From assembly GCA_049860595.1 (NCBI GenBank), contig CP187551.1: a stretch of DNA of 64,000 bases. The stretch is one strand, 5' to 3'. Positions 11,125 to 42,548 of this stretch are shown piece by piece. The DNA comes from Methanocaldococcus sp. 16A (GTDB lineage Archaea > AGJL01 > Methanococci > Methanococcales > Methanocaldococcaceae). A program made the translations under genes and the position numbers. Numbering within the stretch: the first letter of the stretch is position 1; every line of letters starts with the position of its first letter. The notes under the pieces are model-generated. The model ran no database searches and was not told where the DNA came from. It saw only the letters and a list, made by a program, of their open reading frames with translations.

Positions 11125-11554
11125 GTAGTTTCTTTTCTCTCATTGCTATAGCCTTAGGAGCAACTTTTAATATTGCTTCAATAATCTCAGAAGGTCTTGG
11201 AGGACAGCCTGGAATTTTTGCATCTACTGGAATTATTTTATGAACTCCTCCAACAACATGTCCTTCCTTAAAAATTCCTCCACTTAAAGCACATGCCCCT
11301 ACAGCAACAACTACTTTTGGTTCAGGTGTTTTTTCATAAATTTCTTTTAGCCTTTCAGCCCATTGTAAAGTTACAGGCCCTGTAATAAGTAGAACATCAG
11401 CTTCTCTTGGGTTGTTATGAACATAAATCCCATACTGCTCTATATCATACCTTGGAGCTAAGCAAGAGACGATTTCAATATCACATCCATTACATCCCCC
11501 AGTATTGACAACACACACATGTATTGACCTTTTTCTAATTAGTTCTTTAACCAT
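11093..11554 (-). CDS. ehaN: Energy-converting hydrogenase A small subunit
   Basis: [36 protein letters not shown] (NuoB-like). Confidence 0.95.
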
Positions 11555-11647
11555 GGTTATTTCCTCCTAAATAATTTTAAGAGGGTATACCAATAGGGCG
11601 AAGCCCTATGGTTTCTGAATAGTTCTTTAATCATGGTTATTCCTCCT
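11532..11647. repeat. GC-rich hairpin element flanked by an ~36-bp duplication of the ehaM/ehaN junction
   Basis: Direct repeats at 11532-11568 and 11612-11647 flank CAATAGGGCGAAGCCCTATG. Confidence 0.8.
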
Positions 11648-12050
11648 TCAGCAATTTAATAATCATCTGCCTACCCTCTTCTAAAGCTTCTTTATATGGT
11701 TTTTTATATAACAAATGGCTTTCAACAACCTTTTTTCTAATTAAATCGGCCTCTTCCTTTTTTATTAATCCAAAGAAATCACTAAGCCAACACAACCCTA
11801 AATCAATATCTACCTTCCTACCCAAACAACCCATCTTTGCCTGCTCTGCATAGGCTTGAAGTTCATAGCAAGAAGCAAAATCCAATTTTTTGGCAAATAT
11901 TTCAACAACTTCATCAACATCAATTTTTAATGCCTTAGCTATTGGAATAAATACATCATCCATTAAAAATCTATTATCTTTAAGAACGTTTATTTTTTGC
12001 TTTAGAGCGTTTTCAACATATTTTTTGTCAATATCTACAATCTCAGTCAT
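11637..12050 (-). CDS. ehaM: Eha subunit M
   Basis: Soluble subunit upstream of eha[17 protein letters not shown] motif; operon order. Confidence 0.8.
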
Positions 12051-12053
12051 AAA

Positions 12054-12338
12054 TTACCACCTCAAAATATAAAGCAATAAAGCTATAATCAATCCAACAA
12101 TAAACTCAATCCTTCCATATCCTGGCCTCATTCCTAAAGGAAATCCAATTAATAAGCATCCAAGCAGATACAATGGGGAATTTACTAAAATCCCACCAAG
12201 TATTGATAAAGCTAAGGCAATTTTATCAATCTTCTTTTCCACATAAGGGGAAGAATATTTTCTATAACTGTATTCCAATCCAATAAAATTTCCAACAATA
12301 AACAAAATTATAGCTAAATTTAACTCAAATAATCCCAT
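12054..12338 (-). CDS. ehaL: Eha subunit L (membrane)
   Basis: GLEYSYRKY and GMRPGYGR motifs; operon order. Confidence 0.8.
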
Positions 12339-12346
12339 AATTCCAC

Positions 12347-12592
12347 CTATGCAGGAATATATAGCTTATATAATGTGTATGCAAAGAAAGCTAAAACCAA
12401 TAACATAAACAGAATTTCAAGAGTTTCCATTTTATGAGCTATTTTTTTGTTTGTAATTGAAATAGTTAATATTAAGATTAATCCAAATATCAAAACTACT
12501 GAAATAACATTAAATTGCATTAATGTTACAAGTATTCCATAAATCACTGCAATAATACAAGCGATTGCAAATAAATAAACATAATTTTTCAT
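12347..12592 (-). CDS. ehaK: Eha subunit K (membrane)
   Basis: Three TM segments; operon order. Confidence 0.7.
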
Positions 12593-12594
12593 TT

Positions 12595-39494: not shown

Positions 39495-39503
39495 TCTCTT
39501 TCC

Positions 39504-40298
39504 TCACGTCTTGTTTTCTTTAGTTGCATCTAATACAGTATAGCTAATTTTTGCATTATCAAGCTTTTTAATAACTTTCTCTGCCATTTTTCCAGTTATT
39601 AAAGCTATTACATTACAACCCCTATTGCATGCATTTACAATAGCTTCGGGAACAGCAAATCTTATGTCTGGTTTATACCCTAATTTGTTTGCAACAACGT
39701 AAGCAACAGTACCCATTGTTGCTACAACATAGTTATCTAAATCACCAATGTTCTTTTTTATTAAATCAAAATCTACAACCCTCGAACCACCAACGACTTC
39801 TGGTGGGATTCTAAAAACAATAACCTTCCCTTTAGGAACATCAATAATTCCTTTAATCTCACATACTGCTATATCTTCTTCTTTCTTTCCACCATATAAT
39901 GCCTTTGCCTTTGCTTCTCCTTTAGGTTCTTTTGATGCATATAATAAACCATTTTTCATAAACAAATATACTGTTTCTCCATCTTCAATATCCTCATTAG
40001 CTATAGCCGGCCATATATCTTTATATCTATATACTGCCGAATTTATTTCATCTAAATACTCTCTAAACTCTGATATCCAATTTTTTAATTTTCTTAAACC
40101 TTTTTCAGTTACTACATACTCTCCCCTACCTCTTGATTTAACATAACCATCTTTAACTAAATTTCTTATATGCTCTGAAACTGCTTGAACAGTAATTCCC
40201 AAATTTTCGGCTATTTCTTTCTGCTTTATGTGAGGTTGTTTTCTTATAATTTCGGATAGGACTTGAAATTCAGTTATATTTCTTTTCTTCATTATCAT
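39504..40298 (-). CDS. Winged-helix transcriptional regulator
   Basis: QKEIAENLGITVQAVSEHIRNL...RGRGEYVVTEKG. Confidence 0.82.
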   Translation of the reverse strand: MIMKKRNITEFQVLSEIIRKQPHIKQKEIAENLGITVQAVSEHIRNLVKDGYVKSRGRGEYVVTEKGLRKLKNWISEFREYLDEINSAVYRYKDIWPAIANEDIEDGETVYLFMKNGLLYASKEPKGEAKAKALYGGKKEEDIAVCEIKGIIDVPKGKVIVFRIPPEVVGGSRVVDFDLIKKNIGDLDNYVVATMGTVAYVVANKLGYKPDIRFAVPEAIVNACNRGCNVIALITGKMAEKVIKKLDNAKISYTVLDATKENKT

Positions 40299-40384
40299 CC
40301 CTCAAAAACCTTTTAATTACTTAACAATAAATATTATCTTTAAAGGTATTTAAATGTTAAAGATAACTTTAATAGGTGAGAATT

Positions 40385-41191
40385 ATGGAAATATTGATAG
40401 TTAATGATGATGGCATTTACTCCCCTTCATTAATAGCATTATACAACGCTTTAAAAGAGAGATTTAGTGATGCAAACATAACTATAGTAGCTCCAACAAA
40501 TCAGCAGAGTGGAATTGGAAGAGCAATAAGTTTATTTGAACCGCTGAGGATGACAAAGGTTAAGTTAGCAAAGGATATTATTGGTTATGCAGTTTCTGGA
40601 ACACCAACTGATTGTGTAATCTTAGGAATCTATCAAATATTAAAAAAAGTTCCAGATTTAGTAATTTCTGGGATAAATATTGGGGAAAATCTTGGAACTG
40701 AAATAATGACTTCTGGAACTTTGGGAGCTGCGTTTGAAGCAGCACATCATGGAGCTAAATCTATAGCCTCTTCCTTACAAATAACTTCAGACCACTTAAA
40801 ATTTAGAGAGTTGGAAATTCCAATAAACTTTGAAATTCCTGCAAAAATAACCGCAAAAATTGCTGAGAAATATTTAGATTATGATATGCCATGTGATGTT
40901 TTAAATATAAACATCCCAGAAAATGCAACCTTAGAAACCCCTATAGAAATAACAAGATTAGCAAAAAAGATGTACACAACCCACGTTGAGGAAAGAGTGG
41001 ACCCAAGAGGGAGAAGTTACTATTGGATTGACGGCTATCCAATATTTGAGGAGGAGGAAGATACGGATGTTTATGTTTTAAGGAAGAAAGGGCATATTTC
41101 AATAACTCCTCTAACTTTAGATACAACTATTAAGAATTTAGATGAGTTTAAGAACAAATATGGAAAAATTCTTTGTGAAAATATAAAATAA
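40385..41191 (+). CDS. surE: 5'/3'-nucleotidase SurE
   Basis: ILIVNDDG, SGTPTDCV, SGINIGENLG, SGTLGAA. Confidence 0.95.
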   Translation: MEILIVNDDGIYSPSLIALYNALKERFSDANITIVAPTNQQSGIGRAISLFEPLRMTKVKLAKDIIGYAVSGTPTDCVILGIYQILKKVPDLVISGINIGENLGTEIMTSGTLGAAFEAAHHGAKSIASSLQITSDHLKFRELEIPINFEIPAKITAKIAEKYLDYDMPCDVLNINIPENATLETPIEITRLAKKMYTTHVEERVDPRGRSYYWIDGYPIFEEEEDTDVYVLRKKGHISITPLTLDTTIKNLDEFKNKYGKILCENIK

Positions 41192-41302
41192 AGAAATAAT
41201 ATAACTTCAATTTATACATTTTTATTATTCAATGTTAATTAACTTTAAATATTACAATTACAAAAAAATATAAGGTTTTGAACAGTGAAAAAGGTGATTT
41301 TA

Positions 41303-42325
41303 TTGACCTGCACCATTATTGTAGGAGGACAATGGGGAGATGAAGGAAAAGGAAAGATAATAAGCTATATTTGTGATAAAGACAAGCCATCAATTATTGC
41401 AAGAGGAGGAGTAGGGCCAAATGCAGGACATACTGTAAATATTAGTGGAAAGAGTTATGGAATTAGAATGATACCTACTGGCTTTCCATACAAAGAGGCA
41501 AAGTTAGCTATAGGAGCTGGTGTTTTAGTAGACCCAGAAGTTTTGTTAAGAGAGGTTGAGATGCTTAAAGATTTTAATGTTAGAGAAAGATTAATCGTAG
41601 ATTATAGATGTGGAATTATTGAAGAAAAACACAAAATTATGGATAGAAAGGATGAACACTTAGCTAAAGAGATTGGAACTACTGGAAGTGGCTGTGGTCC
41701 TGCAAATGTTGATAGAGTGTTAAGGATTTTGAAACAGGCGAAAGATATTGAAGAGTTAAGAGAATTTTTAGGAGATGTTTCTGAAGAAGTTAATAATGCT
41801 TTGGATAGGGATGAAAATGTTTTAATTGAAGGAACACAAGGGACTTTGCTTTCATTATACTACGGAACTTATCCTTATGTAACTTCTAAAGATACAACCG
41901 CATCATCATTTGCCGCTGATGTTGGAATAGGCCCTACAAAAGTAGATGAAGTTATTGTTGTATTCAAAAGCTTTCCTACAAGAGTAGGAGCCGGGCCATT
42001 CCCAACTGAAATGTCATTAGAAGAGGCTGAAGATTTAGGAATTGTTGAGTATGGAACAGTTACTGGAAGAAGGAGAAGAGTAGGGTATTTTGACTTTGAA
42101 TTAGCAAGAAAAGCTTGCAGATTGAATGGAGCTACACAAATAGCCTTAACTGGATTAGATAAATATGATAAAGAGTGTTATGGAGTAACAGAATATAATA
42201 AGCTTAGTGAAAAAGCTAAAGAATTTATAAACAAGATTGAAGAAGCTACTGGAGTTCCAGTGACTATAATCTCTACAGGTCCAGAAATGCATCAAACAAT
42301 TGATTTAAGAAGTGAGAAATTATAA
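41303..42325 (+). CDS. purA: Adenylosuccinate synthetase (short archaeal type)
   Basis: [43 protein letters not shown] start after GGTGA. Confidence 0.96.
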
Positions 42326-42364
42326 AAATTCTATTAACTAAAAATCATTATTTATTTTTTAGAC

Positions 42365-42548
42365 TTTCTTTGACCTCTTTTGCTATAGCCCTACTCAATA
42401 TCGGAGGAACACTCTCTACCGAACCTTTTATTAAAAGCTTCACCAAAATATAACACCTCCTCGCTTCGCTCGGAGGTGTAAATTCTTATAATTTCTTTTT
42501 AATCTCTTTTGCTATTACTCTACTCAATATCGGAGGGACACTTTCTCC
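42365..42548. repeat. Two-hairpin element flanked by an ~55-bp duplication of the methyltransferase 3' end
   Basis: Direct repeats at about 42365-42420 and 42492-42548 flank GAACCTTTTATTAAAAGCTTC and ACACCTCCTCGCTTCGCTCGGAGGTGT. Confidence 0.8.

Follow-up and report, generated by a model that had tools for sequence, protein, structure and literature searches.

Short hairpin units between long duplications of gene termini in Methanocaldococcus are probably non-autonomous mobile DNA

Results

Four hairpin inserts between duplicated gene termini

The stretch of DNA analysed in this study (64,000 nt, hereafter the window) carries genes for a NuoB-like (EhaN-type) protein, a NuoH-like (EhaJ-type) protein, KorB, and a cytosine-5 DNA methyltransferase, and beside each of them lies a short insert bounded by direct repeats (DRs). 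An initial annotation of the same DNA had described these four cases (a to d, with d as the weaker one) as hairpins between long duplications of gene starts or ends, of about 36, 49, 55, and 25 bp. All four proved to be real and lie where that annotation had placed them, with DRs of 37 (a), 45-54 (b), 43-49 (c), and 23 nt (d); its gene names (ehaN, ehaJ, methyltransferase, and korB) also held up, as matching ORFs were identified. The features are listed below, with the types of hairpin designated A, B, C, and E.

11093-11554: NuoB-like (EhaN-type) ORF
12595-13485: NuoH-like (EhaJ-type) ORF
22583-23392: KorB ORF
42486-43427, minus strand: cytosine-5 DNA methyltransferase ORF
11532-11568 and 11612-11647: DR pair of case a (37 nt, 89% identity, spacing 80 nt)
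11532-11568: DR copy 1 of case a, with the minus-strand RBS, ATG, and first codons of the NuoB-like gene; the copy in use
11569-11611: insert of case a (43 nt), with a C-type hairpin at 11590-11611 flush with DR copy 2
11612-11647: DR copy 2 of case a, overlapping the stop of the upstream ORF (11637-12050, minus strand) and retaining a spare ATG
11557-11634, minus strand: mini-ORF of case a (25 codons)
13436-13489 and 13565-13618: DR pair of case b (54 nt at 87% identity, with a 45-nt core at 91%; spacing 129 nt)
13436-13489: DR copy 1 of case b, with the RBS, ATG, and first ~11 codons of the NuoH-like gene; the copy in use
13490-13564: insert of case b, an A+E two-hairpin unit in minus orientation
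13508-13535 (E) and 13544-13566 (A): hairpins of case b, with ~11-18 nt of filler on the E side
13565-13618: DR copy 2 of case b, unused
13555-13602, minus strand: mini-ORF of case b (15 codons), from the duplicated ATG to an end within the A hairpin
23405-23427 and 23578-23600: DR pair of case d (23 nt, 96% identity)
23405-23427: DR copy 1 of case d, directly upstream of the korB RBS (minus strand)
23428-23577: insert of case d (150 nt), with hairpin modules at 23432-23457, 23470-23501, and 23517-23571
42369-42417 and 42498-42546: DR pair of case c (49 nt, 86% identity, spacing 129 nt)
42369-42417: DR copy 1 of case c, a relic of the last codons of the methyltransferase gene
42418-42497: insert of case c, an A+E unit in plus orientation
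42421-42441 (A, flush with the relic copy) and 42453-42479 (E): hairpins of case c, with ~17-24 nt of filler beside the used copy
42498-42546: DR copy 2 of case c, the working 3' end of the methyltransferase ORF

The inserts measure 43-150 nt, are built of strong hairpins, and contain neither an ORF nor a mobility gene. When folded as single-stranded DNA, inserts a, b, c, and d gave z-scores of -2.3, -7.6, -4.1, and -3.9, respectively. In case a, the mini-ORF starts at the duplicated ATG, runs through the hairpin, and ends at a TAA 2 nt ahead of the real ATG, a layout that mirrors the original stop/start arrangement. The insert of case a is a derivative of a C+B unit, which is kept whole at the same junctions in a related genome (G015; the genome of the window is G000). 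The claim that cases b and c carry one two-hairpin element in opposite orientations was borne out, and a third DR-flanked copy of this unit was found just beyond the window (C1:65403-65467). At the site of case c, G015 has a single DR copy, and the insert of case d is also found in G011.

A discrete two-hairpin unit with unlike ends

Comparison of copies revealed a discrete unit of ~65-70 nt with two hairpins, in the order of an A or C hairpin, a linker of 8-10 nt, and a B or E hairpin. Similarity between copies is confined to ~64-68 nt, and some inserts consist of hairpin modules in an array. The stems have been conserved by compensatory change, with 98.8% of cells paired and changes on both sides in 15 of 19 pairs, a result matched by none of 500 shuffles. 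No terminal inverted repeats were found, as neither unit end (CCATAGG... and ...GCCTCTT) is an inverted copy of the other. Moreover, the two ends behave differently. One is flush against a DR and the other carries 2-42 nt of filler; of 24 oriented rows, 19 had a filler gap larger than the flush gap. When a source for the filler was sought, the best match elsewhere was clearly above shuffled controls for 0 of 14 fillers.

Most genomes of the genus carry 7-40 copies of the unit, and four carry 0-2. No identical master copy was found. For the insert whose 43-nt DR is perfect, the most similar copy in that genome reaches only ~91% identity, which makes simple copy-and-paste a poor fit. Two classical MITE families with terminal inverted repeats, present in the same genomes, have duplications of 6-8 bp. 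A classical MITE was rejected as an identity for the units, because they lack terminal inverted repeats and because their duplications (6-75 nt) are neither short nor fixed.

Long DRs are associated with the hairpins genome-wide

Across three related genomes, 37 distinct events with hairpins between DRs were identified, with DRs of 16-75 nt (median, 33 nt) and inserts of 43-170 nt; two further young inserts have duplications of 6 and 12 nt, which extends the overall span to 6-75 nt. DR scores were obtained by local alignment and set lower bounds on length. When a DR was called at a flank-to-flank local alignment score of at least 15, DRs were found at 44 of 131 hairpin loci in the three genomes, compared with 16 of 4500 control positions, which were placed at ORF boundaries away from CRISPR arrays. 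The association between DRs and hairpins is therefore far above chance. A comparison of G000 with G011 gave the same picture: among 166 clean indels, long DRs were present in 12 of the 21 with hairpin modules and in 5 of the 145 others. The initial annotation had proposed a genome-wide check of the flanking duplications; long DRs flank 18 of the 36 full two-hairpin units found by a covariance model, so that copies lacking them are not the majority of these units. Among all hairpin loci, about half to two thirds are without a long DR, which is compatible with presumed decay of the unused DR copy.

Of the 16 events in G000, 14 overlap a gene terminus. Inspection by eye of the DR boundaries revealed no sequence motif and no microhomology, and both the sequence and the length of the DR differ at every site. 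Because of this variation, the att-like recombination route that had been suggested for these inserts is not supported.

Empty sites and the direction of change

As the initial annotation had predicted, empty sites with one copy of the duplicated segment were found in sister genomes. For 14 events, a sister genome without the unit and without the filler has exactly one DR copy, spanning the DR length within 4 nt; an empty site holding both copies was never seen. In four of the 14 events both other genomes are empty, indicating that insertion is the derived state. Moreover, the youngest inserts carry perfect DRs, as seen around two inserts found in G011 only (43 nt and 26 nt). Taken together, the one-copy empty sites and the perfect DRs at the youngest inserts indicate that the duplication was made at insertion, and they support the earlier claim of a non-autonomous hairpin element whose entry duplicates a long stretch of target and leaves an intact gene terminus. 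G011 also contains plain tandem duplications, one of 135 and one of 171 nt, that are free of hairpins.

Two sites have a more complex history. At the ehaM/ehaN junction (case a), the insert is common to G000 and G015 at identical junctions and G011, the closest genome to G000, is empty, which points to exact loss of the unit. At the ehaJ site (case b), similarity in G000, G001, G008, and G010 is greater between the two DR copies of one genome than between orthologous copies; G006 carries the unit but not the upstream DR copy; and the filled state does not track overall relatedness. This pattern suggests that gene conversion, repeated hits, or allele transfer also contribute.

The ehaJ site bears on a two-step explanation, in which the unit entered first and the second DR copy arose later by local duplication, gene conversion, or import of a filled allele, with no special mode of insertion. 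The three features of the ehaJ site are in its favor, as is the occurrence of hairpin-free tandem duplications in G011. However, the 14 sister sites have exactly one DR copy, G006 at ehaJ is the only unit-only intermediate seen, and perfect DRs surround inserts unique to one genome. Furthermore, tandem duplication of a target together with its unit would yield two units rather than one, and allele import accounts for the spread of a filled allele but not for its first origin. We consider this explanation very unlikely.

Searches for a mobility enzyme

The HUH/REP-like route that had been proposed for the element was examined through its enzymes. A search for Y1 HUH transposases (PF01797) gave no match in G000, which is 99.98% complete; the control search matched 6 of 14 known genomes. 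A search for reverse transcriptases (PF00078) likewise gave no match in G000, and no longer element bounded by the unit hairpins was found among the hairpin loci of this genome. Because the genome lacks a Y1 transposase, the HUH/REP-like route is unsupported, and mobilization as REP or REPIN sequences by a RAYT was rejected. A target-primed retroelement was also rejected, as G000 lacks a reverse transcriptase, although the variable duplication and two unlike ends do resemble SINE/LINE-like elements.

Discussion

Relation to described systems

The initial annotation had stated that these inserts match no described system, which was too strong. Among described processes, insertion with long target duplication comes closest; it has been reported for bacterial restriction-modification gene units (Nobusato et al. 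2000, Gene 259:99; Furuta et al. 2010, PMC2853133). According to the latter, the DRs there are also long and variable in length, the insert lacks a mobility gene, an empty site with a single copy is found in a related genome, and the DRs often span a start or stop codon, so that the target gene stays intact. The inserts described there, however, are unique, kilobase-sized restriction-modification units of bacteria, whereas here a multi-copy family of 65-70-nt hairpin units accounts for dozens of events per genome set in archaea. Lim et al. 2012 (PMC3457768) describe the process as recognised "not yet for short DNAs", with the exception of one 21-nt case in an rRNA gene. Long-duplication insertion was earlier known only for large gene blocks in bacteria, and here it involves a tiny hairpin unit.

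Several other systems share individual features with the units. CRISPR spacer integration gives a repeat-insert-repeat product through staggered two-strand attack and fill-in, and one genome (G016) has a unit between CRISPR repeats; repeat and spacer lengths are fixed in that system and inserts are unique, whereas here lengths vary and the inserts form repeated families. REP, BIME, and REPIN sequences are likewise short, GC-rich extragenic palindromes with compensatory change, often in multi-module mosaics; those with a RAYT differ in relying on a Y1 HUH enzyme that is missing here, and we know of no long target duplication made by REP or REPIN insertion. MIRU repeats, reportedly described by Supply et al. 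in 1997, are said to lie at mycobacterial operon junctions with small ORFs that overlap the stop and start codons of their neighbors. The mini-ORFs of cases a and b are comparable, but the ORF of a MIRU belongs to the repeat, whereas here it is made by the duplicated gene start.

Three palindromic repetitive elements, MJRE1-3, were reportedly described in Methanocaldococcus jannaschii by Suyama, Lathe, and Bork in 2005 as short repeats that lie mostly outside genes, sometimes inside them, with low identity between copies. The hairpin repeats studied here are probably the same families; the genus is shared, and the genus-level spread of the units fits. To our knowledge, no sister genomes were available in 2005 for an empty-site comparison. 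The paper (FEBS Lett 579:5281) appears in the reference lists of PMC2229807 and PMC2996958.

How the units may insert

Discrete units with unlike ends are observed, the filled state is derived, the empty site has one DR copy, and young inserts have perfect DRs. From these sequence comparisons, the inserts are probably non-autonomous mobile DNA units whose entry duplicates a long, variable stretch of the target. A unit would enter a new site and leave that stretch at both of its sides. In a gene-dense genome, the surviving inserts would mainly be those in which the duplication restores the start or end of the disrupted gene; such survival would place the units at gene termini and operon junctions, where they would leave relic gene ends or short ORFs that keep the stop/start layout. 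The DRs would also permit later exact loss of the unit.

For the specific route we have only a tentative proposal, which we hold to be possible though somewhat short of even. The unit may move as a folded single strand or as hairpinned DNA and be joined at two single-strand breaks on opposite strands, 6-75 nt apart, or else at the equivalent in a replication fork, a displaced flap or a gap. Joining would be precise where the A/C hairpin has its foot but imprecise at the B/E end, and gap filling by host polymerases would create the duplication. A stagger that varies in this way points to an intermediate of host repair or replication rather than to a transposase that cuts at a fixed spacing.

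Alternatively, the hairpins could be read by a dedicated transposase or nuclease that is encoded elsewhere in the genome, acts in trans, and cuts the target with a long, loose stagger, in the manner of IS1630 or IS1634-type elements; the units would then be unusual MITEs. The units do have discrete, conserved ends, compensatory change is expected if a protein reads the structure, and the patchy family (up to 40 copies in other genomes of the genus but only 0-2 in four) fits dependence on a gene that can be lost. There is also precedent for variable duplications well above the usual <10 bp: IS1630, of the IS30 family in Mycoplasma, duplicates 19-26 bp according to PMC2853133. IS1630 and IS1634-type elements, however, are autonomous and encode a transposase between terminal inverted repeats, which the units lack; furthermore, IS1630 takes inverted repeats as its target and duplicates them, whereas in the present case the hairpin is itself what is inserted. 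No longer hairpin-bounded element was seen among the hairpin loci of G000, neither of the two enzyme families searched (Y1 HUH transposase and reverse transcriptase) is present there, the DR span of 6-75 nt is wider than that of any cited transposase, and filler at one end is not a product of transposase joints. This explanation seems to us unlikely.

A further explanation, which we consider very unlikely, is that Cas1-Cas2 puts hairpin DNA at off-target sites, the DR being the counterpart of the duplicated CRISPR repeat. Several points speak for it: the geometry is that of a spacer integration product; the median DR of 33 nt is near the 30-nt CRISPR repeat of these genomes; in G016, at least 7 CRISPR arrays have near-identical C+B units at one of their ends, between a full and a degenerate repeat; and PMC6698737 (citing Nivala 2018) discusses off-target integration and its possible role in new arrays. 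Against it, a ruler mechanism should give a narrow peak, but DR lengths span 6-75 nt and the range of 28-32 nt includes only 7 of the 37. The inserts (43-170 nt) are not spacer-sized, and they form repeated families instead of being unique. Filler is present at one junction, and none of the arrays in G000 or G011 has a hairpin unit within 1.5 kb. The G016 copies have flanks in common and so resemble a single array-end module that was copied together with the arrays.

Returning to the reading of the inserts as mobile units joined by the host, a bolder version would make them a new kind of mobile DNA without a transposase of its own. A folded single strand captured during replication or repair, for instance in a displaced flap or a gap of 6-75 nt, would be joined by the host, precisely at the foot of one hairpin and imprecisely at that of the other, with a self-healing duplication, cost-free landing in gene termini, and exact exit; the same product might seed or extend CRISPR-like arrays, as the array ends of G016 hint. 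We regard this version as doubtful.

Significance

Long, variable target duplication has hitherto been an oddity, seen in bacteria around a few large restriction-modification inserts. In the genomes studied here, this signature recurs dozens of times with a well-defined small unit, polarised young events, perfect duplications, and unlike ends. A unit of this size can be synthesised and followed, which makes the mechanism of insertion testable. The proposed insertion mode would account for the presence of repeats at gene starts, gene ends, and operon junctions, for the relic gene ends and small coupling ORFs beside them, and for the scar-free disappearance of units. For the annotation of Methanocaldococcus genomes, it would mean that duplicated starts or ends beside hairpins are insertion scars rather than alternative starts or pseudogenes.

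Long direct repeats at four hairpin inserts

The window, which forms the leading 64 kb of contig C1 of the Methanocaldococcus sp. 16A genome (G000; 1.62 Mb, 30% GC, three contigs), contains an energy-converting hydrogenase operon, several CRISPR arrays, and gene families typical of Methanococcales. The initial annotation had pointed to hairpins between direct repeats (DRs) at the ehaM/ehaN junction (case a), the start of ehaJ (case b), the end of a methyltransferase gene (case c), and a site before korB (case d). All four were found where it had placed them, each with DRs and hairpins; the gene names it gave also stand, and cases b and c indeed carry the same two-hairpin unit in opposite orientations. 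The features are as follows.

11093-11554, NuoB-like ORF
12595-13485, NuoH-like ORF
22583-23392, KorB ORF
42486-43427, cytosine-5 DNA methyltransferase ORF
11532-11568 and 11612-11647, case a DRs (37 nt, 89% identical) around a 43-nt insert with one GC-rich hairpin
13436-13489 and 13565-13618, case b DRs (54 nt at 87%, with a 45-nt core at 91%) around a two-hairpin insert
42369-42417 and 42498-42546, case c DRs (49 nt at 86%) around the case b two-hairpin unit in the opposite orientation
23405-23427 and 23578-23600, case d DRs (23 nt at 96%) around a 150-nt insert with three hairpins

When folding of the inserts as single-stranded DNA was compared with that of shuffled sequences, z-scores of -2.3, -7.6, -4.1, and -3.9 were obtained for cases a to d, respectively. 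In cases a and b, the spare copy of the gene start retains its ATG and thereby opens a short ORF. The case a ORF (25 codons) runs through the hairpin to a TAA stop 2 nt ahead of the true ATG, copying the original stop/start layout; the case b ORF (15 codons) terminates within the hairpin. A large CRISPR array with about 65 repeats spans 46777-51113; the first few repeats have a variant last base, and repeat-spacer units are duplicated within the array with a 132-nt period and 100% identity.

Anatomy of the hairpin unit

The hairpins were sorted into the following module types.

module A, AT-rich hairpin
modules B and E, GC-rich hairpins with related loops
module C, GC-rich hairpin
modules D and F, further GC-rich hairpins

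The modules usually occur as two-hairpin units of about 65-70 nt (C+B, A+B, or A+E) or in longer arrays. Copies are alike across 64-68 nt and no further, indicating that the unit is discrete, and its ends are not inverted repeats of each other. The hairpins are maintained by compensatory change: when 20 copies from the related genome G011 were aligned to the model, 98.8% of cells paired and both sides had changed in 15 of 19 pairs, a result matched by none of 500 shuffles, although these counts lean toward structure because the alignment was fitted to it. Rfam returned no match to the hairpins, and its sole match between 10 and 45 kb of the window was the sR3 C/D-box small RNA (18685-18739, minus strand; RF01133, 52 bits).

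The unit sits asymmetrically between its DRs. Its A or C hairpin lies almost flush against one DR copy, and next to its B or E end come 2-42 nt of filler, which is missing from empty sites (sister loci lacking the insert) and is not common to different copies. In 24 oriented rows, the filler gap exceeded the flush gap in 19, was smaller in 4, and tied in 1. Moreover, at gene starts and gene ends alike, the filler side usually faces the DR copy in use and the flush side faces the relic. When measured automatically, 20 of 27 distinct one-sided events followed this rule, 5 contradicted it, and 2 were ties; some of the exceptions resolve in its favour when the sequences are read by eye. No common motif was found when DR boundaries were compared.

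DR-flanked hairpins are widespread

Whole-genome self-comparison revealed about a dozen further DR pairs enclosing hairpins. Module seeds were then searched for in G000, in all of contig C1 of G011, and in the first 1.2 Mb of contig C1 of G015 (1.61 Mb), with neighbouring matches merged and each locus scored by the best local alignment between its two 110-nt flanks. A score of at least 15 was obtained at 14 of 40 loci in G011, at 14 of 60 in G015, and at 16 of 31 in G000, the last rate being inflated because the seeds were taken from that genome's own DR-flanked cases. Control positions (ORF boundaries away from CRISPR arrays) reached this score at 6 of 1500 in G011, 4 of 1500 in G015, and 6 of 1500 in G000. 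A covariance model of the C+B unit, which gives a less DR-dependent census, found 16 loci in G011 and 20 in G015, of which 8 and 10, respectively, have long DRs. After orthologous copies were merged by hand, 37 distinct DR-flanked events remained in the three genomes, with DRs of 16-75 nt (median 33). The phenomenon described for the four window sites is real and general.

The C+B unit was found in 14 of the 16 other genomes of the genus, with 16-37 copies in G010, G015, G006, and G011, 1-2 in G002 and G009, and none in G013 and G003. Two sister genera, represented by 20 genomes, lacked it altogether, and all three genomes from two further genera had it.

The duplication is produced when the unit inserts

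At ehaJ, the site is empty in G011 and G015, the two genomes closest in sequence, and the duplicated segment is single there. Across 14 events, the distance between the outer flanks in a sister genome equalled the DR length to within 4 nt; such a site therefore has one DR copy, no unit, and no filler. Case c is among these events (a single 43-nt copy in G015). For 4 of the 14, the site is empty in the other two genomes alike, and the filled state can therefore be read as derived. Among the inserts confined to G011 are two with perfect DRs, of 43 and 26 nt.

Comparison of G000 with G011 gave 166 clean indels, 21 of them with module seeds. A DR score of at least 14 was reached by 12 of these 21, compared with 5 of the 145 others, and 2 of those 5 are plain tandem duplications (G011 positions 517483 and 645839) that bear no relation to hairpins. 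The 9 module-positive indels without extended DRs include two plain insertions of a unit, one having duplicated 6 nt and the other 12 nt, so that duplication length varies continuously from a few bases up to 75; the remainder are other MITEs, AT-rich false seeds, and changes within hairpin clusters. These data show that the duplication is produced when the unit inserts.

Landing sites and later history

A gene start or end is overlapped by 14 of the 16 events in G000. Selection would leave insertions at termini if other intragenic hits were lethal and a long duplication restored the struck terminus; the initial annotation had correctly read the consequence that the gene terminus is left intact. 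Some target regions were hit more than once: in one of them, the insertions in G011 and G015 lie 9 nt apart, the units differ, and each is flanked by a DR of its own.

Units are also lost exactly. The ehaM/ehaN junction holds one old insertion that G000 and G015 have in common, its junctions being identical in the two; in G000 the B hairpin has subsequently disappeared. In G011, the closest relative of G000, this site is a clean single copy. The ehaJ site is filled in G001, G008, and G010 as well; DR copies within a filled genome are more alike than orthologous copies across genomes, and G006 carries the unit without the upstream copy. This pattern indicates a history involving repeated hits, gene conversion, or allele transfer.

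G000 and G011 are about 95% identical in sequence and heavily rearranged, with flanks non-adjacent in the other genome at about 16% of control gene boundaries (73 of 464). Units lay at gene-order breaks in 7 of 31 cases and, set against those 73 of 464 controls, showed no clear enrichment as rearrangement hot spots. Cumulative GC skew revealed no clean replichores in the three genomes.

Possible routes of insertion

We consider it probable that these hairpin units are mobile and that their insertion duplicates a long stretch of target, variable in length. As to the particular route, our preferred reading, held at somewhat under even chances, is that a hairpinned, probably single-stranded copy of the unit would be joined either into paired nicks or into an intermediate with a flap or gap of variable size, and that subsequent fill-in would create the duplication.

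For spacer-type integration by Cas1-Cas2, the geometry is suggestive, as is the closeness of the median DR (33 nt) to the 30-nt CRISPR repeat. However, no more than 7 of 37 DRs measure 28-32 nt, and the inserts neither have the size of spacers nor are unique. Duplication lengths are also spread too widely to favour a protein ruler, and this speaks against Cas1-Cas2 as well. REP/RAYT-like, IS200/IS605-like, and retroelement routes are disfavoured since G000 contained neither a Y1 HUH transposase nor a reverse transcriptase, the two families searched for; the HUH route proposed initially is accordingly unsupported. The att-like route is not supported either. A model in which filler is an old DR carried over from an excised circle is likewise unsupported, because filler matches did not clearly beat controls.

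Two facts are awkward for any simple model: no identical master or donor copy of the young inserts was found, and in the three genomes none of 14 fillers had a best match clearly above shuffled controls. The identical copies present in the related genome G016 appear to represent a single module that recurs at the ends of several CRISPR arrays. There, near-identical C+B units lie at one end of at least seven arrays (loci L151-L157, for example L154 and L155), in the order full repeat copy, unit, 12 nt, degenerate repeat, spacer, repeat. Here the CRISPR repeat itself thus takes the place of the duplicated "target", and because the flanks are common to the arrays, this looks like one module spread with them. 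At G011:C1:184656-184830, a perfect 21-nt DR around a C+B unit resembles a shortened CRISPR repeat, having its first and last bases with the middle absent; no array lies within 1.5 kb.

Other inserted repeats

Several other repeats were observed in these genomes. A GC-rich, strongly folding 339-nt insert (G011:C1:36056-36492; L014:16056-16492), orthologous to window 21974-22027, is flanked by 49-nt DRs representing the 3' end of the gene that matches window ORF 21974-22516. At least six copies of the insert's core (about 270 nt) occur in G011 and none in G000, and Rfam gave no match for the insert. At G011:C1:900808-901082, a perfect 47-nt DR surrounds an AT-rich insert of 181 nt, which lacks hairpin modules and is missing from G000.

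Two classical MITE families in the same genomes make duplications of 6-8 bp. The first is about 90 nt long, has terminal inverted repeats (GGACTTTCGCAG.../...CTGCGAAAGTCC), and duplicates 6-8 bp of its target; it occurs genome-wide in G011 (e.g., C1:257436, 260007, and 1149220) and G000 (e.g., C1:986708 and 1181811) and is polymorphic between them; G011 also has a longer, apparently protein-coding element with similar ends. The second, MITE-like family measures about 105 nt; its copies contain a single GC-rich hairpin and lie between duplications of roughly 7 bp (G011:C1:228763, 465630, 717133, and 163290; G000:C1:294788 and 1058570). Its copy at G011:1388785 has a 29-nt diverged direct repeat instead.

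Relation to known systems

In a 2005 study by Suyama, repeat families MJRE1-3 were reportedly described in M. jannaschii, and the hairpin repeats are probably these families. In the literature covered, mostly outside subscription journals, no account of long duplications around archaeal hairpin repeats was found, and the 2005 paper may mention flanking repeats.

The initial annotation had matched the insertions to no described system, yet an analogue exists. Insertion with long target duplication has been described for restriction-modification gene units from genome comparisons, and its authors noted that the repeats often span start or stop codons, so that the target gene is spared (PMC2853133). 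The process seen here with hairpin units matches it. According to a later paper from the same group, the process had not yet been recognised for short DNAs except in one 21-nt case (PMC3457768). We class the present case, which comes from archaea, as the first systematic one in which a short hairpin element present in many copies inserts with long target duplication.
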